Positions 23,938 to 40,476 of a DNA stretch of 64,000 bases are shown here, one piece after another (the first letter of the stretch is position 1; each line of letters opens with the position of its first letter). The notes below the pieces were generated by a model. The model was not told the DNA's origin and ran no database searches. It saw only the letters and a list, made by a program, of their open reading frames with translations. Position numbers and translations under genes: made by a program. Source of the stretch: Candidatus Bathyarchaeota archaeon (lineage in GTDB: Archaea > Thermoproteota > Bathyarchaeia > Bathyarchaeales > Bathyarchaeaceae); contig CAVOMX010000012.1 in the NCBI GenBank assembly GCA_963697165.1, positions 32,001 through 96,000 of the forward strand, written 5' to 3'.

Positions 23938-25331
23938 GTGACAATTGGGTTGCTGAAGAAAACCAAAATCGTGTGCACGATTGGTCCCGCCAGTCTAGAG
24001 TCTGAGACATTGGAAAGGATGTTTCAGGCTGGCATGAACTGTGTTAGAATAAACACTGCATACGGAGACTTTGACCGTTACAGGCAGGTTGTGGACAATG
24101 TTCGAGAAGTAGCTGACATGCCTGTTATGGTTGATTTGAAGGGTCCAGAAATCAGGATTCGAACAGACAAAGAACATGTCGTCAAGAAGGGCGAGGTGCT
24201 TGAGGCGGGCTTCAATGGTGAGGCAATCAGCTTTAATCACAACTTCATTGACCATATGAATGTTGGCGATGTGATTTTCATTGATAACGGCAGAATCAGA
24301 ACATTCTGTTATCGAAAAGGCTGATGGTTCATTGCGTCTGCTTGTAGAGAACGGCGGGGTAGTATCTGATGGCAAAGGCGTCAACGTTCCAAACAAACAA
24401 CTTACAGTTCCAACCCTATCACAACGGGACCTGAAGATCATCGACTTTGCAAAAGAGCATGAAGTAGAGTTTTTGGCTCTCTCATTTACAAGAAACGCCA
24501 AAGACGTAGCAAACCTCAAGTCAGCGGCTGAAGGACTTCAAGGGGGCAGTGATTGCTAAGATCGAAAACTTTGAGGGAATCACAAACTTCAAGGAGATTC
24601 TAAACGCATCAGAAGCAATCATGGTTGCAAGAGGCGACTTGGGCGTCGAAATCGAGCCAGAACGTGTTCCTCTAGTCCAGAAGTCTCTGGTTCGCAGTGT
24701 GCAATCAGGCAGGAAAAACTGTTGTGACAGCCACGGAGATGCTGGAATCCATGATGCATCAGCCTAACCCAACAAGAGCCGAAGTCAGCGACGTGGCAAA
24801 CGCGATACTGGACGGAACCGACGCAACCATGCTTTCTGGAGAAACAGCGGTTGGCGAGTTTCCGGTCGAGTCTGTGGCTATGATGACTCGTATAGCCTTG
24901 GAGGTGGAAAAGGCGACAAAAAGCAGCGTTAAAGACAGGGGATTTGTTAACATCTCGGATACTGTAAGCTGGTCTATTCAGAGGATTTGCCAGAGCATGC
25001 CCTTGACCAAGATTGTTACATTAACTAGGTCAGGTTACACGGCGAAGATGATTTCCCGTTTCAAGATTCGCAGATCAGATAATCGCGGTTACGTCCAAGC
25101 CCGATGGTAAAGAAGCAGCTGGAGCTGGTTTATGGCGTAGTTCCAGTGCATTATGATTACCGCAAAGAAGAAGACAGACTACTGTCTGTTGCATGTATGC
25201 TGTATTCCATGAAGTTGCTAAACATCGAGGACTTGGTGCTCTTCACAGCCGCTTTTAGAACAAAAATGAAACATGCAAGCAACCTCATCGAAATCCACAC
25301 ACTCAAAGAACTCCTAGACCTAAAAAAATAG
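23938..25331 (+). CDS. pyk: Pyruvate kinase (split by several frameshifts)
   Basis: [66 protein letters not shown] across five consecutive ORF pieces. Confidence 0.93.
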
Positions 25332-25685: not shown

Positions 25686-26170
25686 TTACTGGGGAACAAA
25701 ATCTAATATGCACTGTTGCGATTCTTTGCATTTTTGAGATTTGAGTTTAAACTTCATTGTTTTAGCAATTTCAGAAACCCAAACTTGATATTCAGTACTG
25801 CAAATAGTTTCACCAATAATTCCAGAAAGGTCCTTTCGCCCACTTTTGATCATTAAATTATGCCATGGACAACCAGTTATTATTATTCGAAATCCATTCT
25901 GCGGTCTTTTCTGCCTTAAATTTGAATCCTTCCAACTCAAGCTTTGTTACAAGACTCTCAAGAAGAGCCTCTGAGCCGTTTTCGAGCCCTAAAAATGATT
26001 GGATCATTCTAGCCTGAATCTTTGGCATTACTTTCCAGACTTCATTATCCAATTCTAGAGCAGCGTCAAATCCGTGTTTCTCTTCAACTTTCATAAACCA
26101 CAGTCCATCCACAGCTTTGTAGCTCCGATTAAAATAGTCGGCGACTTGTTGCGAACTCAATTTAGTCATA
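25686..26170 (-). CDS. DUF6125-like (V4R/4-vinyl reductase-like fold) protein (frameshifted)
   Basis: AVDGLWF..VE...G...A..LD..VW, followed by CPW.....K.GR and C...C motifs. Confidence 0.7.
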
Positions 26171-26334
26171 TGATCACACTTAGCTCTTAGAAAGAGCTGA
26201 TAAATCAGGTTTTTCTAAAAAAGTATTCAACATTTTTATCGCTTGAAATAGTCATAACATATAAACGGAACAAAAATTTGATATCCACTCCCACAAACTC
26301 CTTTATTGGTCACAACAGAACAGAGATACTAAAA

Positions 26335-27750
26335 ATGGATAACGAACAGTTTAGGAAATATGGGCACGAAATGGTGGATTGGATAGCCGATTTCATGAAA
26401 AACATCGAAAAATATCCTGTGCATCCGGATATCCAGCCGGGAGAAATCAAAACACAACTTCCTAAAAATGCGCCAACAAAAGGAGAGAAAATGGAGGACA
26501 TTCTCAAGGATTTCCAGAACATCATCTTGCCCGGAATTACCCACTGGCAGCATCCTTGTTGGTTCGCCTATTTTCCAGCAAACAATAGTCCACCCTCGGT
26601 TCTGGGAGAATTTCTGACAGCCGCGCTTGGGGCGCAGTGCATGATCTGGAAGACTTCACCCGCAGCAGAAGAACTAGAGGAGGTGACATTGGAGTGGCTC
26701 AGGAAAATGGTTGGCCTGCCTGAGGGCATGGTAGGCGTGATACAGGATTCCGCATCCACTTCTACGTTAGTTGCCTTAATAGCCGCTAGAGAAAAGGCGT
26801 CAGACTTCGAGATTAACAACAAAGGCTTCGCTGAATTCTTGACTGTCTATTGTTCAGAGGAAGCTCATTCAAGTGTTGTGAAAGGTGCGAAGATTGCCGG
26901 TTATGGTGAGGAGAACATACGACTGATTCCCGCTGATGAGAACTTTGCAATGATCCCCGCAAAGCTTGAAGAAACAATTCGAGAGGACATAGCTGAAGTA
27001 AAAAAACCAGCCTTTGTCTGCGCTACGTTAGGAACGACCTCTTCTGCGGGCGTAGACCCTTTGGACAAAATTGGAGCCATCTGCAAGAAACATAACGTGT
27101 GGCTTCACGTGGACGCAGCATATGCAGGCGCCGCTGCTATACTGCCAGAAAAGAGATGGATAATGGAGGGCATAGAATATTCGGATTCATTTGTTTTTAA
27201 TCCCCATAAATGGCTACTCACCAACTTTGACTGCTCAGCGTTTTTCGTTAAAGATTTAATAACGCTCAAGAAAACATTCGAAATTCACCCTGAATACCTC
27301 AAGACGGGCGTGGATGCCAAGGTCAATAATTACCGAGATTGGGGAATCCAGCTAGGAAGACGGTTTAGAGCACTTAAACTATGGTTTGTTCTGCGATCAT
27401 ATGGGGTTGAAGGTCTTCAGAATATGGTTCGTGAGCACATCAGATTGGCACAAATGCTAAAACAGTGGATAGATGATGATCCACGTTTTGAAGTTATGGC
27501 TCCTGTAGATTTTAGTTTAGTTTGCTTTAGGTTTAATCCAAAAAGCATGTCCGAACAGCAACTAGATGAGTTGAATAGGCGGTTGCTTGAAAGCGTCAAT
27601 CAAACTGGCAAGACCTTGTTGACCCACACTATGCTCAAAGGCAGGTATGTGATTCGTTTTTGTATTGCTCAGAGAACAACCAGGGAAGAGCATGTTAGAC
27701 AAATATGGAAGCTGATCACTGAGAAAGTAGAAAAATTGCTAGAACGGTAA
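26335..27750 (+). CDS. PLP-dependent aromatic L-amino acid decarboxylase (group II, DDC-like)
   Basis: PGITHWQHP..FAYFP, SPAAEELE, AHSSV.K, LGTT, WLHVDAAYAG, FNPHKW (PLP Lys), LGRRFRALKLW. Confidence 0.93.
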   Translation: MDNEQFRKYGHEMVDWIADFMKNIEKYPVHPDIQPGEIKTQLPKNAPTKGEKMEDILKDFQNIILPGITHWQHPCWFAYFPANNSPPSVLGEFLTAALGAQCMIWKTSPAAEELEEVTLEWLRKMVGLPEGMVGVIQDSASTSTLVALIAAREKASDFEINNKGFAEFLTVYCSEEAHSSVVKGAKIAGYGEENIRLIPADENFAMIPAKLEETIREDIAEVKKPAFVCATLGTTSSAGVDPLDKIGAICKKHNVWLHVDAAYAGAAAILPEKRWIMEGIEYSDSFVFNPHKWLLTNFDCSAFFVKDLITLKKTFEIHPEYLKTGVDAKVNNYRDWGIQLGRRFRALKLWFVLRSYGVEGLQNMVREHIRLAQMLKQWIDDDPRFEVMAPVDFSLVCFRFNPKSMSEQQLDELNRRLLESVNQTGKTLLTHTMLKGRYVIRFCIAQRTTREEHVRQIWKLITEKVEKLLER

Positions 27751-27766
27751 CAAATCCATGTTCCAT

Positions 27767-29170
27767 TTAGAGACGATGTTTGCTTTTGTTCATTTCATGC
27801 CTTTTACCGGAGATTGCAGCAACCGTTTCTCCAACCTTATTTTCTTCTACCACTAGAATGATTTGCGAAGTATGAGGTGCAAAGATTCCACGTTTAATGT
27901 TTATTTGAGGAATCGCCCCGATAGCCATTGACGCGACCCCAGAAGAATACTTCATTCCGTCTCCAATAAGGGTGACAACTCCAACGCCATATTCTATCGT
28001 TAAGTTTTCGTCGAAGCCCTTGAGGCGCTCTTCATTCTTTCGCAGAAAATCTGAATCAAGAAACAGAAAATCACGGATTCGTTTTCCGGTCTCAAGTGTT
28101 TCAATGCCCAAATCCAGAAAATCATTACAGTTTTCCCAAATCCTCAAAGCATCTTCAAAAGACCTGCTGTTTGTATCATCCATCGTGAGTATTGCACAGC
28201 CTGATTTGCCTGTAACACATTTCACGGTTTGATCAAGATTGCTTTCAGAACTTATTAGTGTATAATCTTCGGGTTTAACCATTGACATAACCTTGATTGG
28301 CTGCCCGAATTGCTTAGCCATCGAGATTGCATCGCCTTGAACAATCTTCATTCCCATCTTAGACGCTTTATGAGCCTCATTATACGTAAGAGAAACAATG
28401 TGCTCAGTTACCTGACCCCTAACCATCCTCGGATCAGCACTTTGAACCGGCATCTCCTTAAACAGAACAGTTTCAACATTATATTTTCGCTTTAGTAAAC
28501 ATGAAACAAAGACAGCTGAAAGATCAGAGCCGCCTCTTCCAAGCAATGTTTCTAGCCCGTCACTTGTTATTCCAAGAAATCCTCCTAGAGCAACACTTTT
28601 TCCTGCTTCAAGCACCTCGATAAGCGGTTTAGATTTGCTTTTGCTCAGATGATAATTGGGTGTAGCAGTTTCGAAGTTATCGTCAGTTATGATTGGCCAG
28701 TTTTCTTTTTGAATGTGACAAGAGTCGAACCCGTTGCTTCTCAGGACATAATCCATCAATACAGATGTAGGTAATTCTCCGCCATGTGTGAGAACTTTTG
28801 CTTTGACTGTTCCATGAAAGCGTTTGTTTATTAAAGCCAAAGAGTCATCCAGTTGCCGCTTATAGTTTTTCAGTTCACTGATAGCTTGTTTTAGATACTT
28901 GCCTTTGACGTACTTTTTGGCTAATTTTTCGTAGACGTTAAAGATATAGTCTACTGGAAGGGGTCCAGATTGTGTACATGATTCGCCTAGTTGAATGAGC
29001 TTGTCGGTGAATCCGTTTGGCGCAGAAAAAACAACTATTGGACCTAAATCGCTTTGATTTTTAAGATCATTTACACAATCCAGAATAGCAGGGATATTCT
29101 TGCCATCTTCACTTAGTAAACTTCCACCAAATTTGGCAACTGAAAGCGTTCTGATCGTCTTCACCCTCAT
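27767..29170 (-). CDS. Aspartate kinase family protein (divergent)
   Basis: VAKFGGS, VVFSA, GGE, LGRGGSD.SA, SADPR, LTYNEA; C-terminal ACT-like VTLIGDGM. Confidence 0.85.
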   Translation of the reverse strand: MRVKTIRTLSVAKFGGSLLSEDGKNIPAILDCVNDLKNQSDLGPIVVFSAPNGFTDKLIQLGESCTQSGPLPVDYIFNVYEKLAKKYVKGKYLKQAISELKNYKRQLDDSLALINKRFHGTVKAKVLTHGGELPTSVLMDYVLRSNGFDSCHIQKENWPIITDDNFETATPNYHLSKSKSKPLIEVLEAGKSVALGGFLGITSDGLETLLGRGGSDLSAVFVSCLLKRKYNVETVLFKEMPVQSADPRMVRGQVTEHIVSLTYNEAHKASKMGMKIVQGDAISMAKQFGQPIKVMSMVKPEDYTLISSESNLDQTVKCVTGKSGCAILTMDDTNSRSFEDALRIWENCNDFLDLGIETLETGKRIRDFLFLDSDFLRKNEERLKGFDENLTIEYGVGVVTLIGDGMKYSSGVASMAIGAIPQINIKRGIFAPHTSQIILVVEENKVGETVAAISGKRHEMNKSKHRL

Positions 29171-29243: not shown

Positions 29244-29624
29244 TCAAACATTCTTGTCGGACTGGATTTTATACGCTAATCCCGAGAACAAGGCCACATC
29301 TTTGTCTTCTTTCTTAACTACTACTCTGCATAAAGCTAAAGTTTTTCCATCCGAAACAGTATTTGCCTCAGCAGTCAAAATGTCTCCCTCTAATGTGGGT
29401 CGTAAGTAGTTTATGCTAACCTGAACCGCAACTGCCTGCTTATCACCAAAGTTTACGGCTTCAGCAAATGCACAGTCAGCCAAAGAAAACAGCACGCCTC
29501 CATGAGTGAAGCTTGCAATGTTTGTGTGTTCTTTTGTGACTTCCAGAGACATTTTCGCGTAACCGTCTCTTATTTCAAGAACTTTGATTCCTAATAACTC
29601 TCTGAAATGGTCATGTCCCTTCAA
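29244..29624 (-). CDS. paaI: PaaI-type hotdog-fold thioesterase
   Basis: HTN.....HGGVLFSLAD.AFA.A.N, INYLRP. Confidence 0.9.
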   Translation of the reverse strand: MKGHDHFRELLGIKVLEIRDGYAKMSLEVTKEHTNIASFTHGGVLFSLADCAFAEAVNFGDKQAVAVQVSINYLRPTLEGDILTAEANTVSDGKTLALCRVVVKKEDKDVALFSGLAYKIQSDKNV

Positions 29625-30658
29625 GTTTTATCACTTCTGGTCAGTTCTGTGCGTACATAACGATACATCTTACGGAGCAACGATGATATCCCTTTGGGCA
29701 AGAAAACAACTATTATGACAAGAAAGATGCCAAGCCCCAGCAAACGTACTGGCGGTCCCACATTACTTACTGCTGGAAAGAGTGGACTTAGAGCAAGCTG
29801 CAGGGCGCCATCTATGTTTGGCAGAAGCGTGTCAATAAAGACCATTATCGCCGAGCCTATTATTGGACCTTCGATGGTGCCAAGACCGCCGATAACTGAC
29901 ATCATCAGCGGCTGGAATGATTTGTCTGCAACAAAAACTGAGACACTAATGTATTTTAGAAAATGGTAGTAGATTGCGCCTGCCAATCCAGCAAAAAATG
30001 TGCTGAGAACAAATGCGTAAAGTTTGTATTTTGCAGTGTTTATGCCAGTCATGCTTGCTTCAACTGCGTTTTGATGTATTGCTCGGAAAGCTAAACCCAT
30101 TTTTGACTTCATTATGAAATATATCACAGCCACGGTTATTATGCTGATTACAGCTGCAAAGTAATAGAATGGTAATCCTGGTGCTACTAATAATGGAGTT
30201 GGGAAACCAAGAACGGCATGGGTATAGTCATCGAAGTGACTGAACAGGGTTTCTGCGATAACGGAAAAGCCGAAGGTTACCATGGCTAAGAACCAGGCTT
30301 GAAGTCTTACACATGTGACGCCTATCAAAAATCCGATTCCTGCAGAGAATGCAGCTCCGATGAATATTCCGATTATTGGGGGTATGCCCAAGTTTATTGC
30401 AAGCAACGATGAAGTGAATCCGCCTATGCCCAAGAATGCTGCGTGACCTAGTGAGCCTTGCCCCGACATGGCTAATAGATTCCAGCTTGAAGCGTATATC
30501 GTGAAGATGGCGATAAGTGTTAAGATGCGAATAATGTAAGTGTCGCTTACAAAAAGGGGAAAAGCCAAAGAAACTGCGATTGCAATCAGGATTATTCTGC
30601 CTTTTGTGGACTGCAGAATCTTGAGAATGTTGTCTTTCGTGAACTTTTTCCTGAACAT
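29621..30658 (-). CDS. livM: HAAT-family ABC transporter permease LivM
   Basis: SWNLL..SGQ.SLGHAAF, G.AFRAI, GGLGTIEGPIIG, PKGI. Confidence 0.92.
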   Translation of the reverse strand: MFRKKFTKDNILKILQSTKGRIILIAIAVSLAFPLFVSDTYIIRILTLIAIFTIYASSWNLLAMSGQGSLGHAAFLGIGGFTSSLLAINLGIPPIIGIFIGAAFSAGIGFLIGVTCVRLQAWFLAMVTFGFSVIAETLFSHFDDYTHAVLGFPTPLLVAPGLPFYYFAAVISIITVAVIYFIMKSKMGLAFRAIHQNAVEASMTGINTAKYKLYAFVLSTFFAGLAGAIYYHFLKYISVSVFVADKSFQPLMMSVIGGLGTIEGPIIGSAIMVFIDTLLPNIDGALQLALSPLFPAVSNVGPPVRLLGLGIFLVIIVVFLPKGISSLLRKMYRYVRTELTRSDKT

Positions 30659-31534
30659 TTAGTCGCCCTTCTCTCCAAAGAGTCCTTTTGGTCTGAGGAT
30701 AAGAACAATTATTAGAAGTGAAAACGCAACTGCGTCTCTCCAGATGCCGCCAAAAAATATGACTGCTGATTGTTCTGCAATTCCGTATAATAACCCGCCG
30801 ATTATTGCGCCGGGTATGCTTCCTAAGCCACCCAAGATTATGATTGCAAACGCTTTGATGGTTGGTATTGCTCCTATGTATGGAGTGAACGGAGCGATTA
30901 TGCCATAAAGTGAACCTGCGGCTCCAGCTAATGCGGCGCCTAACGCAAAAGTGAAAATGTAAATGTGTTCAATGTTTATTCCCATGAGCATTGCGGCTTG
31001 ACTTTTTTGGCTTGTTGCTCTCATAGCCCTGCCTATCTTGGTTTTCTTAATCAACAAAACTAGCCCAACTAGTATGGCAGCAACAAATGCGAGAGAAATT
31101 AGCCGGTCATAGCTTATGGCCACTTCACCCAAATGTAAGCTCATGTTTTCGAAGGGACTGGTAATTTGTTTAATTTTTTCGCCCCAAATCAGAACAGCAA
31201 TATTGTCAAATACCAGAATCAATCCCAGGCTTACAAAAATTTCGTTAAGTTTGTCTGCTCCCAAAACCCTGCGGAAAGCCAATCTTTCAACTGCTACTCC
31301 AATTAATGCAACTATTCCCATCGACAAGAATAGTGCAATGTAGGCATTCACTCCAAAGACGGTGCTTATTGAGAAGCTTACGTATGCACCCACCATTAGG
31401 AGTTCGCCGTGGGCAAAATTCACCAGCTTCATTACGCCAAAAATTAGATTCAATCCTGTGGCAAGTAAAATGTATATACAGCCTATTGCTACACCCCATA
31501 TCAAAGTTAGAATCAACGTTGTAGCGTCAATCAT
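30659..31534 (-). CDS. livH: HAAT-family ABC transporter permease LivH
   Basis: GLNLIFGV..VNFAHGE, GRAMRA, GGLGS..GA, RPKGL. Confidence 0.93.
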   Translation of the reverse strand: MIDATTLILTLIWGVAIGCIYILLATGLNLIFGVMKLVNFAHGELLMVGAYVSFSISTVFGVNAYIALFLSMGIVALIGVAVERLAFRRVLGADKLNEIFVSLGLILVFDNIAVLIWGEKIKQITSPFENMSLHLGEVAISYDRLISLAFVAAILVGLVLLIKKTKIGRAMRATSQKSQAAMLMGINIEHIYIFTFALGAALAGAAGSLYGIIAPFTPYIGAIPTIKAFAIIILGGLGSIPGAIIGGLLYGIAEQSAVIFFGGIWRDAVAFSLLIIVLILRPKGLFGEKGD

Positions 31535-31672
31535 TTGATTTTCAACCGTTTGTTTGGCTATATTCTACTTAAAATTTCCGCTATAAGGATAATTCAAGAG
31601 GAAAACAAAAAATTCTAGAAATAAAGAAAAAAGGATGGTTGGGAAGTTCCCGTTGACTTTTGAAAGTCATTC

Positions 31673-33062
31673 TCAGGGACTTCCTAGCGCGTAGTTGTCG
31701 GGAAGCACAAAATCTGCCTGCTTTATTGTGCCAACAATTGGAGCCGTTTCAGGCCAGATTACTTGTGGTCTGCATTCGCCAATGGTTGCATCGTAGTACA
31801 GCTGTTCCACAAAGGTGAACGGAGCAATCTCGTGGTATGCTTCTGTAGCGGTGCTGAACTGGATTTTTCCGCTCTCAGTTATGATCAACATTTGGTTCAT
31901 ATTGCATGATTCTATGGCTGCTCTAATGTCACTCTTGTCTAATGTTCCTGCTCGTTCTATGGCGTCTTTTGCTATATAGAATGCGTCGTATGTGTCTGCG
32001 CCCATCATTCCTGGAATAGTATTGTATTTGTCTTGGTAGGCAGCCACGTAGTCATCCATTGCCGACAGATAGAAGGGTGGTCCAGCGTAGGAAGCAAATT
32101 TTGATTCTAGTAGTTGGCGATCACCCCATTCTCCGAGTGCAGTGTAAAACTCTGGCTCTTCACAGCATTCGACTGCTATGTAAATACTGTTTAATCCAAC
32201 ATCGTTTTGTCCTTGTTTATAAATTGTGGCGGTGTTTCCTGTAAAGTCTACGACATAAACTGCGTCAGGTTTAGCTGCTTTAACGTTTGTTAGTTCTGCT
32301 TGGAAGGTTGTTGTGGTTATAGGATAGCTTTGTTCGGCAACAATATCTATTGGCAGGTTGTCCGCTTCGATGAAGTGTTTGGTTGCATCCCAAACTCCTT
32401 TTCCAAAAGCGTCGTCACGGTAAAGAACCGCAAGCCTAAGATTCCTTGTAATACCGTATTCACTTGCAAGCAAAGGTTTCATGGCTTCAGCAAAGAAATG
32501 AGCAACTGTTTCTGAATAGTGATATGTGGTGGTACAATAGTGGAACATGTAACTCATTCCATCCGCATCGGTTATTCGCAACGGAGAGTCTGCTGGAAGA
32601 CCACCATAGTTAGCCTGTGGACCTCTTCTTGTAACAAGATGACTTGAAGCACCTGTTATAATGTAGGGAACACGAGCTTCGATGGCTGGAACTTGACCTG
32701 CAAGGGTAGCTCCACTTCCGAATCCTCCGATGAGGAGATCAACTTCTTCCTGTGAAATTAGCCGCGTGACTTCGTTTACTGCAGCATCTGGATTAGCGTT
32801 TTCTGTGTCTCCAGTTACCAACTGAATAGTAAGGTTCTTACCCAGAGAGGACACGTAAACGCCACCCATAGCGTTGATTTCTTCAACGGCCATTCTGGCT
32901 GCACGATCCATGTCTTGTCCGACGGGTATTTGGTATGGCGCAACTAGACCTATTTTGATTGTTGACTCTGATGTCGGATGATGTTAGTTGCCAAGCAGCA
33001 ACGGATCCAGCGACAACTACGATCACAATGACAATTGCAGCAAGTAGTTTCTTGTTTATCAT
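31673..33062 (-). CDS. livK: HAAT-family ABC substrate-binding protein with N-terminal membrane anchor (frameshift near 32975)
   Basis: ATG 33062 starts MINKKLLAAIVIVIVVVAG; after the shift come IKIGLVAP, AVEEINAMGG and YDAFYI..DAIERAG. Confidence 0.88.
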
Positions 33063-33111: not shown

Positions 33112-33702
33112 TTAACCCACGTTTACTTGTTCTCTGCCGATTTTGAAGGCTTCAAGATTAAGCGCTACGTATTTTTCTTTGAGCCTACCTGCGATAGCCT
33201 TCTCCAGTGACTCTTTTGTAACTGGATTCTCGGGGATGCCTGAGAGGGCTCCAAGAAGGACTGTGTTAACCACCAGAATGTTTCCAAGCCTGTTGGCGAT
33301 GCCGATTCCATCGACTTCATACACTTTGTGTGCCCTACCTTTTATTATGCCTAAAATCTTTTCATGATTCAAAACAGATGAACCCCCAACAGATGTGCTT
33401 GGCGGTATATACTTGGTATTCACTATAACTGTCCCATTTTTGTTCAACATCGGGAGAACCCTTGCAGCTTCAAGCATTTCAAACCCTAAGATTATGTCAG
33501 CTTTTCCAGACTCTATCAACGGAGCTTGAACCTTTTCGCCAACCCTAACATGCGCAACTATTGAGCCACCTCTTTGAGCCATTCCATGAACTTCCGCCTT
33601 TGCAACATCCCAGCCGTCAATGAGAGCCGCCTCACAAAAAATGTCACTAGCAACAACGATGCCCTGTCCGCCTACACCAGAAAAAACAATGTTCAACACC
33701 AT
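33112..33702 (-). CDS. iorB: Indolepyruvate:ferredoxin oxidoreductase beta subunit
   Basis: GVGGQG, EVHGMAQRGGS, NTVLLG, N.EAF..G. Confidence 0.95.
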   Translation of the reverse strand: MVLNIVFSGVGGQGIVVASDIFCEAALIDGWDVAKAEVHGMAQRGGSIVAHVRVGEKVQAPLIESGKADIILGFEMLEAARVLPMLNKNGTVIVNTKYIPPSTSVGGSSVLNHEKILGIIKGRAHKVYEVDGIGIANRLGNILVVNTVLLGALSGIPENPVTKESLEKAIAGRLKEKYVALNLEAFKIGREQVNVG

Positions 33703-35894
33703 CTACTTTTTGCTCCTTATCACATCAAAAGGACAAATCTCTTCACAGACTCCACAACCATAACAGAGGGTCGGATCAATCTCAGCACGTTCAGAAGTGA
33801 GAGAAATCGCAGGACAACCAAACTGTTCAACGCACACACCACACGCGTTGCATTCTTCCAAAACCTCCCTCTTTGGACCCTTTTTAACCAAAAGAGGGCA
33901 AGGTCTTCGAGATATTATAACAGAGGGACCGCGGTAATCTAAAATTTCACGTATAACTTTCCTTGCGTTTTCAACATCGTACGGGTCAACGATCTCTACT
34001 TTCTCGATTCCCAAGCTTCTTGCAACATCTGCCAACTCTATTACTTTTGTTTGTTCGCCTAAAGCATTCTTTCCAGAACCCGGTGTCGGCTGATGCCCCG
34101 TCATTGCCACAGGTACGATTATCCAATATTACTACACAGACGTTTGATTTGTTGTATGCGATGTTTAGTAAACCCGGCATTCCGCCATGAAAGAACGTTG
34201 AATCGCCTATTACCGCAAAAACTTTGTCTTTGACTCCCGCGTGAATCATGCCTGCAGCCTGCGAAATTCCGGCACCCATACAGAGGCAGGTTTGAACAGT
34301 ATTCACGGGTGCCATGAATCCTAGAGTGTAGCAGCCTATGTCGCCTGTGACAATTTTGTCTGTTGTTTTGCCTTTAAGGCTCAGTGCACTTTCGGGGCAC
34401 CATTGAATGCACACAGGCTCGCCATCACATGTGTCACATATTAGCGCTTTCCGTGTGCTGGGATGCAGGGTTATTGCCCCGTATTTGCATGCTTGGATGC
34501 ACCAGCCGCATCCATTGCATTTTTCTTCATCAACTGTTATTGTCTTATCATCGGTTGACTGAAGTAAAGCATCTTTTGGGCAGGATGTAACACATGGAGC
34601 TTCTTCGCAGGTTCTGCAAGTTACAGCAATATTGGATAACGTATCAAGTCGTACAGCTCTTATTCTGGACTTAACTGGATTGAAGGTTGCCTCCTTCTCA
34701 AATGAGCAAACATACTCGCATACGACGCAGCCATTACACTTTTTGGGGTTACAGTCAACAAATTGGTTAACCGTATTCAGGGCATAATAGAATGCTCTAT
34801 GTGGACATCCTGGACAGAGCACAGGAGGACGAGATGGCAAATCCAAGCTGTTTTGCAGTTCCGTCTTCTCGCATAACCCCAAACCCACAAAAGCGGCTTT
34901 AACTATATCGGGAGTAAACTCGCCAATTTCCTCTAGTGCTGTATTGTTTTTTCCCAAAATGTGCAGGATGCAAGCATTTAATTCTATTTTCAATGTATGG
35001 TCGTAATTCTTCAACAACAATTATTTTTTTGACTTTGGACGCAAACTTCTTGAAAACTTGCTTAGGAAACGGATACACAAAACCCAGTTTCAGCCAAGAA
35101 AACTGGTTTGAATCCAACACCGACCTTGCATAGTAATAGCCTATGCCGCTACCTACAATCCCAATTTCTTTTCCATTATCCTCAATAACATTGAACTTTG
35201 AGCGGTCAACAAGCTCGGTTGCCTCTTCCAGTTTTTCCTTGAGGATTCTGTGCCGTTTAATCGCGTTCGAGGGCACCATAACCCATCTTGAGGCATCCTT
35301 GTCAAACTCGGCTTTTCGAGGACTCCTGGCAATCTCCTTAATTTTGACGCGCCCTTTTCCGTGAGCCACACGAGTAGTTAAACGAACAATCACAGGCAAT
35401 TGCAGTCTTTCACTTATTTTGAATGCTTCGCGGGTCATATCTAATGCTTCTTGAGGATTACCTGCATCAAAAAGAGGAATATCTGAGTGAACCGCAAAAT
35501 ATCGTGTATCCTGCTCATTTTGGCTGCTGTGCATTGCCGGATCGTCGCAGACGGCAATGACCAAACCGCCTTTAACTCCAGTATAAGCAAGAGTCATGGC
35601 AGCGTCAGCAGCGACGTTCAACCCAACATGCTTCATAGAAACGATGGCTCGTACACCCGCCATTGATGCACCAGCAGCCACTTCCAAGGCAACTATTTCG
35701 TTTATGCTCCATTCAGCGTATATTCCAAAGTTTTTGGCTGCATCAGCGATTGTTTCAAGAATTTCCGTTGAAGGCGTTCCAGGGTATGCGGTTGCCACTT
35801 GTACTCCAGCTTCTACAGCGCCCCTTGCGACTGCTTCGTCGCCATTGAGCAACAGGAAACTGCCAGGTTTGTCAACAGCTATCTTTGCGTTCAT
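33703..35894 (-). CDS. iorA: Indolepyruvate:ferredoxin oxidoreductase alpha subunit with an internal polyferredoxin insertion (frameshifts near 34980-34950 and 34110)
   Basis: YPGTPSTE, MKHVGLNVA, DDP.MHSSQNEQD, RPPVLCPGCPHR, GDIGCY, IGDSTFFH, DN..AMTGHQPTP and a C-terminal 2x4Fe-4S domain. Confidence 0.92.
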
Positions 35895-35907: not shown

Positions 35908-37224
35908 TCAAATCTTGCCTGAGCGCATATCTAAGACCCGTTTTGCTTTTCCCTCGGTCCTAGGGAGATCTCCAGGTTTTACAAGTTCGATAAGCGGTGA
36001 AAGCCCAGTGATGTTGTTTACTTTCTGGTTGATTTTAAGCTTCAATGCTGTCAACTCTTCTGGGGTGCTCTTTACGCTTTTTTCTGTCAGTTCTGCTTTT
36101 ATTGTGAAAACATCCAGTGCGCCTGGTCTTTCAAGAATTATTTGATACTGTGCCGCCAATTCAGGAAGTCCCATTATTGCATATTCTATCTGTGACGGAA
36201 ACACGTTGACGCCTCGTATGATCATCATGTCGTCTGATCTTCCTCTGATTCTCATCATTCTGGAGTGGCTTCGTCCACATTCACATTGTTCTGTTTCAAT
36301 AACTGAAATGTCTCTTGTTCTGAACCGCAGAATGGGGAGACCCGTTTTTGTGAGTGTCGTAAAAACCAGTTCGCCTTCTTCTCCTGCGGGTAATACGTCG
36401 CCCGTTTTTGGGTCAATAGTTTCAATGAGGAAGTGATCCTCCCAGATGTGCAAACCGCTATGTTCACGGCATTCCACTGAAACTCCTGGACCACACAATT
36501 CAGTCAATCCATATATGTCGAAAGCTTCAATTTCTAGTTCGTTCTCGATTCTTTCTCTTATTCTCTCCGACCAAGGTTCTGCCCCAAAGAGACCCATTCT
36601 AAGTTTAAGGTCAGTTCCGGGGTTGATTCCTTCTTTAGCCAATGCTTCAGCAAGGTAGATTGCATAACTGGGCGTGCAACACAGGACTGTTGAACCTAAA
36701 TCGTTCATGAGTTTTATTTGTCTCTGTGTCATTCCGCCGCTGATGGGAATGATTGTTGTTCCGATTTTTTGAGCACCATAATGAAAGCCGAGACCGCCTG
36801 TAAATAGGCCATAGCCATAAGCGTTGTGCATTACATCCTGTCTTCTAACACCCGTGGCATATAGTGATCTTGCCATTAATTCTGCCCAAACATCCATGTC
36901 ATTTGTGGTGTATGCTCCAACCACCGGATTCCCTGTTGTTCCACTCGATGCATGTATTTCAACAATGTCATCAAGATGAACGGAAACCATTCCAAATGGA
37001 TAATTATCTCTTAAATCATTCTTTGAAGTGAAAGGAATTTTTTGTGCATCCTCTAGCGTCTTTATGTCATCGGGTGTTATTCCGTGACTTTTGAATTTGT
37101 TACGGTAAAATGCCGAGTTTTCGTAACAATACTTCACTTGCTTTTTGAGGAGTTTAAGTTGATGTTTCCTTAGTTCGTCTCTGGTTGCGGTTTCGACTTT
37201 TTTGTTCCAGTATACGTCAGCCAT
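35908..37224 (-). CDS. paaK: Phenylacetate--CoA ligase
   Basis: HASSGTTG, YGYGLFTGGLG, GAEPW, YGLTE..GPG, GRSDDM.IIRGVNVFPSQIE, GKAKRV.D. Confidence 0.95.
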   Translation of the reverse strand: MADVYWNKKVETATRDELRKHQLKLLKKQVKYCYENSAFYRNKFKSHGITPDDIKTLEDAQKIPFTSKNDLRDNYPFGMVSVHLDDIVEIHASSGTTGNPVVGAYTTNDMDVWAELMARSLYATGVRRQDVMHNAYGYGLFTGGLGFHYGAQKIGTTIIPISGGMTQRQIKLMNDLGSTVLCCTPSYAIYLAEALAKEGINPGTDLKLRMGLFGAEPWSERIRERIENELEIEAFDIYGLTELCGPGVSVECREHSGLHIWEDHFLIETIDPKTGDVLPAGEEGELVFTTLTKTGLPILRFRTRDISVIETEQCECGRSHSRMMRIRGRSDDMMIIRGVNVFPSQIEYAIMGLPELAAQYQIILERPGALDVFTIKAELTEKSVKSTPEELTALKLKINQKVNNITGLSPLIELVKPGDLPRTEGKAKRVLDMRSGKI

Positions 37225-37238
37225 AACGAAATCTCCAA

Positions 37239-37943
37239 TTAAATGCCCAAATATAATTCTTTGATATGATCATTAGACAGCAGTTTTCTCCCTTCGCCTT
37301 CTATTATAATCTTGCCTTCTTCAAGAACGTAGCCTCTATCGGCGATATTCAACGAATCGCGGATGTTTTGCTCAACCAGAAGGATGGCAACCCCTTCGTC
37401 GTTTATTTGCCGTAACGTATCCAATACTTTGGCTACGATTATGGGGGCTAAACCCAGCGATGGCTCATCAAGTATTAAGAGTTCAGGATTTGACATCATG
37501 CTTCTGCCTATGACCAGCATCTGCTGTTCTCCTCCGCTGAGATTCTGAGCCAGGGTTTTCTCTTTTTTTCGTAGAACAGGAAAAATTTGGTAAATACGTT
37601 CCTTTGATGCCATAACTTGGTGTTTATCCTTTATCGTGTAAGCGCCCAAAAGCATGTTCTCTTCAACAGTCATTCTTGGAAAAATTTCTCTGCCTTCAGG
37701 AATCATAGTTACTCCTTTCTTAACAATTTCATATGGCGGCAAGTTTTCGATGTTTTCGCCTTTAAAACGGATAGCTCCACTTTTTGCGGGCAACAACCCC
37801 ATAATAGTTTTGACTAGTGATGTTTTGCCTGCACCATTAGGACCAATTATGCTAACTATCTCTTTTTCTTTAATCTTGAATGAGACATCCCACAGGATTT
37901 GAATCATACCATATGCTGCAGAAACATTTTCGATTTCTAACAT
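37239..37943 (-). CDS. livF: HAAT ABC ATP-binding protein LivF
   Basis: GPNGAGKT, PEGR.IF, LSGGEQQML, DEPSLGLAP, LVEQN. Confidence 0.95.
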   Translation of the reverse strand: MLEIENVSAAYGMIQILWDVSFKIKEKEIVSIIGPNGAGKTSLVKTIMGLLPAKSGAIRFKGENIENLPPYEIVKKGVTMIPEGREIFPRMTVEENMLLGAYTIKDKHQVMASKERIYQIFPVLRKKEKTLAQNLSGGEQQMLVIGRSMMSNPELLILDEPSLGLAPIIVAKVLDTLRQINDEGVAILLVEQNIRDSLNIADRGYVLEEGKIIIEGEGRKLLSNDHIKELYLGI

Positions 37944-38698
37944 TGTTGTTCCTCATCAAAAGAAATTTTTTTGCCCAAGTACACTTTGATTACGTTCTCA
38001 TCATTGCATACTTCTTCAGGTTTTCCTTCACATATTTTCTCGCCATGATGGAGAACGGTTACTCGGTCACATAGCCCCATAATTACTCTCATAACATGTT
38101 CCACTATGAGTAAAGTTACTCCTTGTTTGTTGATGCGTTTTATCAAAGCAATTGCTTCGTTGCTTTCTTTTGGCGTCAAACCGGTTAGAAGCTCGTCCAA
38201 TAGAAGCAATTTAGGTGATGTAGCCAAAGCTCTTGCAAGCTGGACACGCCTCAATTCTATAACATTCAAATTTCTAGCAGGAATATTGAACTTTTCTTTG
38301 CCTAAACCTACAAAATCCAAAAGTTCTTTAGCTTTGTCCGATGAATCTTGTTCATTTTCTTCTTCTTTTCTGCCAAAAAGCACCCCAATGTACACATTTT
38401 CGAGCGTAGTCATATCAGGAAAAGATTGGACCGTTTGAGACGTTTTTGTTATCCCTTTAGAACAGATTAGATGTGAAGGAAGTTTTGAAATGTCTTCATT
38501 CAAAAACATAACTTTACCAGAGTCCGGTTTGTAAATTCCACTAATTACGTTCAGTAGAGTTGATTTCCCGGAACCATTAGGTCCCACAAGCCCAGTGATT
38601 TCATTTTCATTAACTGTGAAATTCACCTGTTTTAATGCTTTGAGACCTCCAAACTCTTTTGAGACTTCAATACATCGAAGCAAGTCTATGATCTCCAA
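37937..38698 (-). CDS. livG: HAAT ABC ATP-binding protein LivG
   Basis: FGGLKAL, GPNGSGKST, LARALA..PKLLLLDE, IVEH, V...YLG. Confidence 0.93.
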   Translation of the reverse strand: MEIIDLLRCIEVSKEFGGLKALKQVNFTVNENEITGLVGPNGSGKSTLLNVISGIYKPDSGKVMFLNEDISKLPSHLICSKGITKTSQTVQSFPDMTTLENVYIGVLFGRKEEENEQDSSDKAKELLDFVGLGKEKFNIPARNLNVIELRRVQLARALATSPKLLLLDELLTGLTPKESNEAIALIKRINKQGVTLLIVEHVMRVIMGLCDRVTVLHHGEKICEGKPEEVCNDENVIKVYLGKKISFDEEQQC

Positions 38699-38769
38699 AG
38701 TATAGAATGAAATGTTAGCTATGTGAAAATATAAATATTCTTTATGCCTCCTTGAATTGGGGAGAGACG

Positions 38770-39225
38770 ATGATAATAAAACAAGTAAGTGTCTTCTTAG
38801 ATAACAGGCCTGGTTCGTTATCGGAAGTAATTGAGCATATTGACAAGTTTCAAATTAAGATATTTGCGTTGTCAATCGCTGATGCTGGCGAATTTGGGTT
38901 AATTAGAATGATAACTGAAGACCCTGAAAGAGCTAAAAAACATTTGGAAGACGCAGATTTCATTCTCGCAAAATCAAAAAAGAATACAGAAATAATAGTT
39001 ATTCTGATAACCGAAAACGGTAAGGTCTCCAAAATCGCAAAGATTCTAGGCGATGATAATTTGAACATCGAGTATGCTTATTCATCTGCGGTGCTAATAG
39101 ATGGAAAACTTGCGGTTGTTCTAAGAGTTAAGGATTTGAATAAAGCTGAAAAAATTCTTAGAGAAAATAATATACCCATTCTTTCCTTGGATGAAATAAA
39201 AAAAAGCTTTGAAAAAAGCAGTTGA
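38770..39225 (+). CDS. ACT-domain protein of the type associated with paaK/ior
   Basis: IKQVSVFLDNRPGSL, ALSIAD..EFGLIR, NIEY.Y; divergent from livG. Confidence 0.9.
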   Translation: MIIKQVSVFLDNRPGSLSEVIEHIDKFQIKIFALSIADAGEFGLIRMITEDPERAKKHLEDADFILAKSKKNTEIIVILITENGKVSKIAKILGDDNLNIEYAYSSAVLIDGKLAVVLRVKDLNKAEKILRENNIPILSLDEIKKSFEKSS

Positions 39226-39506: not shown

Positions 39507-40476
39507 CTATGTCGCCAGTATCTGTGCGAGTTTCATTAGGTTTAGGTCTAGTAGTTTTTCGTTTGTGCATACTTTTTCTAGACTTATGCTGGTCACTTTT
39601 CCATTCTCTAGCCCAACCATCCTGTTTCTTTGCTTGTTTAGTAGGAGTTCTATGGCTTTGTTTCCGAACAGGTTGGCTAGGAGCCTGCTTCTTGCTGTTG
39701 GGTTTCCTCCTCTCTGTGCATAACCTGTAATGCTCAACCGCACCTCTACCCCAGCCTTCTTCGCAATATCTTTCAGCAGTTTGCGGGTGTCACCGATTCC
39801 CTCCGCAGCCACAATAATGCCTGACTTCTTGCCCTTAGCACCATTAACCTCTAACGTGTGAACAATAGCTCTCTACGCTATACTCAACTTCAGGAACTAG
39901 AATCACCTCGGCCCCAACAGTTAACCCAATCATGAGCGCAAGAAAGCCCCGTTTCCGTCCCATAACCTCAACAACAAAGATTCTCTCATGAGAATTTGCG
40001 GTATCCCTGATCTTGTCGATCTCCCCAATCGCCGTATTCAATGCAGTGTCAAAGCCTATCGTCTCGTCAGTCCCAAACACGTCATTATCAATCGTTGCGG
40101 GAACCCCAACAATAACCGCATCAGACACCTTACTCAACTCTAAGGCTCCACGCAACGAACCATCACCGCCAACCACAACCAGTCCATCAACCCCATTCAA
40201 GGCAAGAGCGTCCGCAGCTCTCCGTACGCCCTCAGGCTTTCGGAACTCTGGACTCCTTGACGTCCGAAGAATCGTACCGCCAACATGAAGAATGCCGCCA
40301 ACATTACGCGGAGTCAACTCCCTAAACCTGTTAGAGATTAAGCCATCCCATCCCCGCTCAAAACCCACAACCTCCAAACTCTTAGAATAAGCAACACGAG
40401 TAACCGCCCGTATCGCAGCATTCATTCCGGGAGCATCTCCCCCGCTTGTCACCAAACCAATCCTCTTCAACAACAT
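39507..40476 (-). CDS. pfkA: ATP-dependent 6-phosphofructokinase, bacterial PfkA family (frameshift near 39850)
   Basis: TSGGDAPGMNAAIR, GGTIL, VGGDGS, PATIDND, EVMGR, AEG, GYAQRGG. Confidence 0.92.

Follow-up and report, generated by a model that had tools for sequence, protein, structure and literature searches.

The iorA gene located in the window, the 64,000-nucleotide stretch of Bathyarchaeia DNA analysed here, encodes a WorS-type 4x[4Fe-4S] domain that is inserted in-frame into the TPP-binding module of IorA, between the ligands of its proximal cluster. Within the searched genomes the fusion is confined to two Bathyarchaeia families, where it is old and conserved. As a tentative functional assignment, to which we give a probability of roughly 0.4, the domain might be a built-in inlet for the electrons that an anabolic carboxylation requires, probably docking WorL, the large subunit of a tungsten aldehyde oxidoreductase, as leading partner. 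The borrowed module bears on the question of how 2-oxoacid oxidoreductases come to work in one direction and with one electron partner.

An inserted four-cluster domain in IorA

The fused protein is encoded by the sole iorA copy of the window's genome (G000; Table 1). Its motif CPGCPHR, which we take to carry the first two ligands of the TPP-proximal [4Fe-4S] cluster, and its motif GDIGCY, presumably providing the third, are 157 residues apart, compared with 24 residues in 22 of 26 parsed canonical IorA loci from the same order and class and 30–31 in the other four. This corresponds to a net insertion of 133 residues, by which the window protein departs from a TIGR03336-type IorA, where only a short loop would be expected to link the CxxC to the DIGC ligands. 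The initial annotation had already placed an in-frame domain between the two motifs, and positions 34373–34768 (−) are indeed free of stops, encoding 132 residues with the four named motifs within the ORF 33986–35020. Two of its figures need correction: the canonical spacing is short, as stated, but measures 24 instead of about 20 residues, and the 16 motif cysteines are all present but do not make up the total, as an extra cysteine just before motif A, found in 121 of 121 homologs, raises it to 17.

Table 1. Coordinates of the iorA gene, its motifs, the neighbouring genes and the insert-less homologs. Occurrences refer to 16 fused loci with wide flanks, which stem from related genomes and are not independent.
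Feature	Position	Strand	Remark
iorA, alpha subunit, domains I-II-VI-V	33703..35894	(-)	split over three frames by two frameshifts outside the insert
WorS-type 4x[4Fe-4S] insert	34370..34768	(-)	net 133 aa; 16 motif Cys + one extra invariant Cys
CPGCPHR	34816-34796	(-)	helix after it precedes the inserted domain
Insert motif A	34738-34706	(-)	
Insert motif B	34618-34577	(-)	
Insert motif C	34519-34487	(-)	
Insert motif D	34438-34394	(-)	
GDIGCY	34345-34328	(-)	far side of the insert
C-terminal 2x[4Fe-4S] domain V	33703..33870	(-)	ordinary; 8/8 Cys present
iorB, beta subunit, CoA-binding domain III	33112..33702	(-)	16/16
PaaK-like AMP-forming arylacetate-CoA ligase	35908..37224	(-)	16/16
Liv-type ABC transporter ATPases, two genes	37239..38698	(-)	named from sequence; livF 15/16
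Liv-type substrate-binding protein + two permeases	29621..32911	(-)	binding protein (livK) 14/16
PaaI-like hot-dog thioesterase	29244..29624	(-)	15/16
ACT-domain-pair protein, divergent	38752..39225	(+)	13/16
Insert-less IorA, G424	L197:6657-8495		
Insert-less IorA, G382	L198:6662-8500		

Neither frameshift (near 34,965 and 34,111) falls within the insertion, and the usual C-terminal 2x[4Fe-4S] domain is additionally present and complete, both as originally noted. Since six of 25 tested G000 genes are frameshifted against their relatives, assembly error is indicated as the source. The iorA reading frame is intact in related genomes (726–732 residues), and the 729-residue ortholog P0001 scores 703.8 bits as a whole on TIGR03336, above the curated cut-off of 650.9; the window gene matches this profile only piecewise because of its frameshifts. 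The proximal-cluster cysteines, the TPP motif and the C-terminal 2x[4Fe-4S] domain expected of an IorA are all found, C360, C363, C521 and the eight cysteines of domain V being near-invariant among homologs. By profile score, motifs and operon the window protein is therefore classified as IorA with a predicted arylpyruvate:ferredoxin oxidoreductase activity. Two other window genes, named from sequence as pyruvate-kinase-like (23938–25110) and phosphofructokinase-like (39507–40476), are also found in pieces, which matches the frameshift-rich assembly.

In a full-length AlphaFold2 model (pLDDT 80.6, pTM 0.77) the core is well folded and the insert follows the helix 364–373, with pLDDT values of about 40–79 that fall under 50 at its C-terminal junction. 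A second model (pTM 0.37) contains a moderately folded insert and an unfolded TPP domain, and neither model places the inserted domain. A fold search with the model returned only OFORs and other TPP enzymes, and PDB searches found no solved IOR structure.

The fused enzyme shares with canonical IorAB (TIGR03336/TIGR03334; Pyrococcus, Thermococcus, Methanococcus) the domain order I-II-VI-V, the separate iorB, the cluster and TPP motifs and an operon resembling anabolic IOR clusters with an AMP-forming ligase. It differs by the 133 extra residues, which, placed between the proximal-cluster ligands, raise the number of predicted clusters by four, and by a backbone whose long branch separates it from the native Bathyarchaeia IorA. 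A four-cluster domain joined to the TPP-binding subunit of an OFOR is also found in PadI, the β-subunit of phenylglyoxylate:NAD+ oxidoreductase (NF045766). There, however, the domain (profile positions 7–138) is N-terminal on a PorB-type subunit (148–438 match PorB-type proteins), whereas in IorA it is internal, between cluster ligands; the insert reaches 80.9 bits on NF045766 over the domain only, against a cut-off of 700, and is no member of PadI. PorE and PorF of the methanococcal anabolic POR are, by description, likewise OFOR-tied iron-sulfur proteins and proposed conduits for reductive carboxylation (PMC13768988; bioRxiv 2024.03.05.583561), but are described there as separate, loosely bound proteins, whereas the insert is not a separate gene. 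The architecture had initially been thought undescribed. A full-text search of open-access papers found no description of it, and PadI provides a precedent in part; the fused IorA is thus apparently an undescribed variant of a known enzyme. It demonstrates that a cofactor-binding fold can accept a WorS-type wire domain in its interior.

Distribution, selection and loss of the domain

A junction-spanning query matched end to end in 19 of 60 relatives (17/24 of the same genus, 2/3 of family f9 and 0/33 of the others), three of these matches being cut by contig ends. Across the class, with six candidates scored per genome, the fusion occurs in 60 of 401 genomes including G000, namely in 9/18 of family f1, 50/103 of f9 and 0/279 elsewhere. 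The best 120 protein matches listed each cover 92–100% of the query, and the spacing of 157 recurs in 117 of 121 proteins, the remaining four being unparsed by the pattern. Fourteen of the 16 motif cysteines are invariant in all 121 homologs and the other two in 120. The many frameshifts in the window's assembly might raise the suspicion of an assembly chimera or a recent accident, but the same junctions recur in the relatives, class genomes and parsed proteins just counted, and no second DNA copy of the insert was found in the genome; the probability of such an origin is accordingly negligible. Misassembly is ruled out by the many independent assemblies that span and share the two junctions, and recent duplication is likewise rejected.

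Among the best 150 representatives of the set clustered at 50% identity (8762 proteins matched), 126 were scorable, the other 24 being fragments or devoid of the motifs, and no independent insertion was detected in them; their loop spacing ranges from 21 to 38 residues. Two loci that looked like candidate fusions (L043, L044) turned out not to be fused. Other types of fusion were encountered as well. Three IorA-like proteins of 1005–1139 residues (P0229, P0242, P0256) are fused to a Fer4_20 + Pyr_redox_2 (GltD/NfnB-like) module, possibly another built-in electron partner for IorA that may be NAD(P)-linked, and in P0152 and P0139 IorA is joined, as read from sequence, to an IorB-like chain, which is N-terminal in one and C-terminal in the other.

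The insert is under purifying selection. Its pN/pS amounts to 0.19 (dN 0.138, dS 1.53; 78 pairs among 13 same-genus genes), which is close to that of domain II (0.195) and higher than that of the catalytic domains (0.10–0.14).

In trees calculated with the loop removed (the first with 14 partial or near-duplicate and two unparsed rows excluded, the second with 35 chosen rows), the fused IorA proteins group together, and a long stem (1.3) sets them off from the native Bathyarchaeia IorA. Sequences of the genus g1 branch from within f9, suggesting that the gene was transferred or lost in a patchy manner. In the f9 genomes G424 and G382, iorA has 613 codons and no insert but nonetheless falls inside the fused clade, as sister to the fused protein of G399 (97/94, with two more starred nodes around). 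In G424, whose IorA scores 728 bits and thus exceeds the IorA cut-off, the first and last residues of the insert still flank the gap as a scar (spacing 35; 25 in G382). The nested position and this scar mark a secondary deletion, and the domain is thus dispensable in these two proteins, the only ones without insert among 63 clade members in one sampling. Both genomes retain paaK-iorA-iorB and worL-worS, so that a co-loss of worL-worS with the insert is not seen, and a compensatory change of domain V is not clear (3/28 and 8/28 versus 3/29 in the sister). The fused form and its close deletion relative constitute a natural pair for asking whether the module favours CO2 fixation or fixes the donor.

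The deletion in one lineage and the variable loop length of canonical IorA would also suit an electronically disconnected passenger in a permissive loop, which is kept for stability, iron storage or redox sensing, and in the model the insert is attached at the end of a helix that appears to lead away from the proximal cluster. However, both families have preserved the full set of cluster ligands at a dS of about 1.5, and in the sampling mentioned only two of 63 clade members lack the domain; we consider a mere passenger distinctly unlikely.

Relationship of the insert to WorS

The assignment of the insert to the CooF/HycB/DmsB-like four-cluster domains, made at the outset, is supported. Its best solved matches (9mqx_E, 6x6u_B, 6x1o_B, 8c0z_C) include small subunits of tungsten aldehyde oxidoreductases; in the classification of tungsten oxidoreductases, as far as outlined in PMC13328260, the WorS/AorA small subunit belongs to classes II–IV. 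The insert is 62–64% identical to Bathyarchaeia WorS and 62% to a worL-adjacent WorS, and within the genome its nearest paralog (61.5%) immediately follows worL on contig C22, a pair that recurs across the order. An aldehyde oxidoreductase or a hydrogenase had been suggested as partner; the closest free relatives, WorS proteins beside worL, speak for the former, and nothing points to the latter. In the domain tree (59 rows) a branch (88/93, not starred) sets the 33 inserts off from the neighbouring Bathyarchaeia WorS, and they do not group with the WorS copies of the genomes they come from, which argues for one old capture and against repeated recent copying.

Common to the insert and WorS/AorA (9MQX, 6X6U, 8C0Z) are the four-cluster motif pattern with 16 cysteines, the groove residues and the motif-A loop, the motifs alone being read. 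The insert differs in being part of IorA, neither a separate subunit nor encoded beside worL, and in its less acidic and less conserved outer half. It does not continue beyond the last strand of the fold and thereby lacks the C-terminal extension of about 25 residues that is conserved in Bathyarchaeia WorS. According to the published descriptions of solved WorS/AorA, the C-terminal helix binds to the groove of the next subunit and thus builds filaments (PMC12318220; bioRxiv 2023.01.23.525143). Fixed residues specific to the insert are found at the junctions, namely the extra cysteine and a terminal glycine. Judged from its sequence, the insert is a relative of WorS and not a WorS subunit. The G000 genome contains, besides the worL with adjacent worS (C22:72037-74459), an orphan worL and two further four-cluster paralogs (C11:167850-169764, C12:134650-135171, C1:45335-46306), of which one is an orphan and the other, extended at its C-terminus by a long tail, resides in an Hdr-like cluster. 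In this assembly frameshifts affect both worL genes.

The two halves of the domain are unequally conserved. A signature of the motif-A loop occurs in 36 of 37 inserts and 20 of 20 worL-adjacent WorS, two counts that lean high because the signature was defined from these groups, and in 0 of 14 Hdr-linked or orphan paralogs. Mean identities (33 inserts, 20 WorS) are 0.79 versus 0.76 for the motif-A segment, and 0.68 versus 0.83 for the motif B–C half, whose net charge of −2.7 compared with −6.9 in WorS reflects a loss of acidity; motif D is relaxed as well (0.69 versus 0.77). We assign motifs A and D to the S1/S2 domain, assuming the DmsB-family topology. In the solved WorSL complex, as described in PMC12318220, WorL is contacted by the S1/S2 domain, which is packed against it, and the path along the filament is made up of S3/S4. 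A retained WorL-facing side and a released filament side would fit this pattern, which descent or packing on IorA would also explain. The signature also persists in four of five orphan WorS copies and may therefore reflect descent only.

Insert positions that match by alignment the WorS groove (Y40, F42, V48, M50 and F96 in the description of PMC12318220) stay hydrophobic, and the equivalents of P59, V63 and M89 are near-invariant. A domain with a helix-accepting groove but no helix of its own might cap a WorS nanowire and pool the electrons of an oxidatively working IOR with those of aldehyde oxidation. The conserved C-terminal extension of Bathyarchaeia WorS would be in line with such a cap, as would a long ORF resembling an ADP-forming acyl-CoA synthetase (Acd-like, named from sequence), a catabolic sign, near three of 16 fused loci, two further Acd-like matches near fused loci being short. 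On the other hand, the motif B–C half, which would form the filament path, is precisely the relaxed one, the operon is of the anabolic type, and WorS helices can, by the account in PMC12318220, fold back onto their own subunit; a nanowire cap hence appears quite unlikely.

Operon context and candidate electron donors

The genes around the fused iorA (Table 1), in particular those for the AMP-forming PaaK-like ligase (565 bits on TIGR02155, under the cut-off of 646), the Liv-type transporter and the ACT and PaaI-like proteins, point to an anabolic salvage of aryl acids. An AMP-forming ligase adjoining IOR is read as a sign of biosynthesis in the account of PMC13285125, and aryl acids are described to supply aromatic amino acid synthesis via IOR in M. 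maripaludis (PMC4162585). Chorismate synthase (aroC) is encoded in 19 of 20 fused genomes and missing in 11 of 14 genomes with canonical IorA, although kin among them are not independent, and prephenate dehydratase is encoded in 20 of 20 fused genomes. This gene pattern is consistent with salvage in prototrophs for the fused form and peptide fermentation for canonical IorA, and it rules out auxotrophy as the reason for the operon. None of the seven Pyr_redox_2 genes of G000, candidates for a flavoprotein partner of the PadH/AorC kind, lies in the operon.

We infer that the insert acts as an electron wire or as a docking module for a partner, the function already proposed in the initial annotation. 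In the favoured scenario the Liv transporter would bring in aryl acids, PaaK would activate them and IOR would carboxylate the aryl-acetyl-CoA to arylpyruvates, from which aromatic amino acids would be formed. The WorS-type domain, fixed in a variable loop of the TPP-binding module, would be the electron inlet that lets IorAB run this reductive carboxylation, and would probably dock WorL, taking the position that WorS has in the tungsten aldehyde oxidoreductase. The electrons released by aldehyde oxidation would then pass from WorL via the four inserted clusters to domain V, the proximal cluster and TPP. The direction is favoured by the strict presence of paaK and the near-constant chorismate synthase, with the Acd-like ORF near three of the 16 loci counting against it, and the inlet and its docking to WorL by the identity with WorS, the kept cysteines and motif-A loop and the relaxed B–C half; PorF, described as electron conduit to the anabolic POR (bioRxiv 2024.03.05.583561), offers an analogy.

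Several findings count against docking of WorL. No worL gene was found at the 16 fused loci or near iorA in ten further genomes, motif D is relaxed despite belonging to the same half as motif A, and WorL already possesses its own WorS. G424 and G382 keep worL-worS and the operon core and have thus retained the enzyme without the domain, which weakens the inlet as such. The available text on the T. kodakarensis interactome mentions no contact between IOR and AOR, the latter term being absent from it (PMC12016516). Co-occurrence of the fusion with WorL or an orphan WorL is uninformative, since all 61 genomes have WorL.

The missing genomic link to worL and the loss of the insert while worL-worS was kept would be more easily understood if the insert lengthened the wire without preference for a partner, as a tethered polyferredoxin comparable to PorE/PorF; it would then store electrons or provide an additional surface on which soluble ferredoxin or a different donor could act, with the WorS-type loop kept for packing on IorA or for folding. 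The fixed, insert-specific junction residues conform to this idea, as does the weak selectivity of PFORs for redox partners reported in PMC13768988. Yet paralogs serving other partners changed the motif-A loop and the insert did not, and the outer half, the expected new docking face, is the relaxed one; a partner-neutral wire is therefore possible, albeit somewhat unlikely. The most far-reaching version of the WorL-docking proposal, in which IorA captured the docking subunit of the tungsten aldehyde oxidoreductase, so that a direct, ferredoxin-free complex with one continuous chain of about eight clusters would use aldehyde oxidation to drive CO2 fixation onto aryl-acetyl-CoA, is bold and on balance unlikely. 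If true, archaea that abound in soil and sediment would possess a hard-wired machine for carboxylation, to which the natural deletion variant provides the control.

Some genes in the vicinity deserve mention. NuoE/NuoF-like (Bfu-type) genes lie about 5 kb upstream of one fused locus (L032:3-2130) and were unseen at the other 15. A DUF6125 protein gene, apparently frameshifted, occupies positions 25686–26169 (−), and similar ORFs are found near the cluster in six other same-genus loci. The operon ends with a gene for a 467-residue protein of the amino-acid-kinase family (aspartokinase-like; 27767–29170, (−)), which follows the cluster in several relatives too. Beside the cluster, at positions 26278–27750 (+), a pyridoxal-dependent decarboxylase is encoded that could supply arylacetaldehydes via amines; a similar gene is located by the cluster in G003 and G009.
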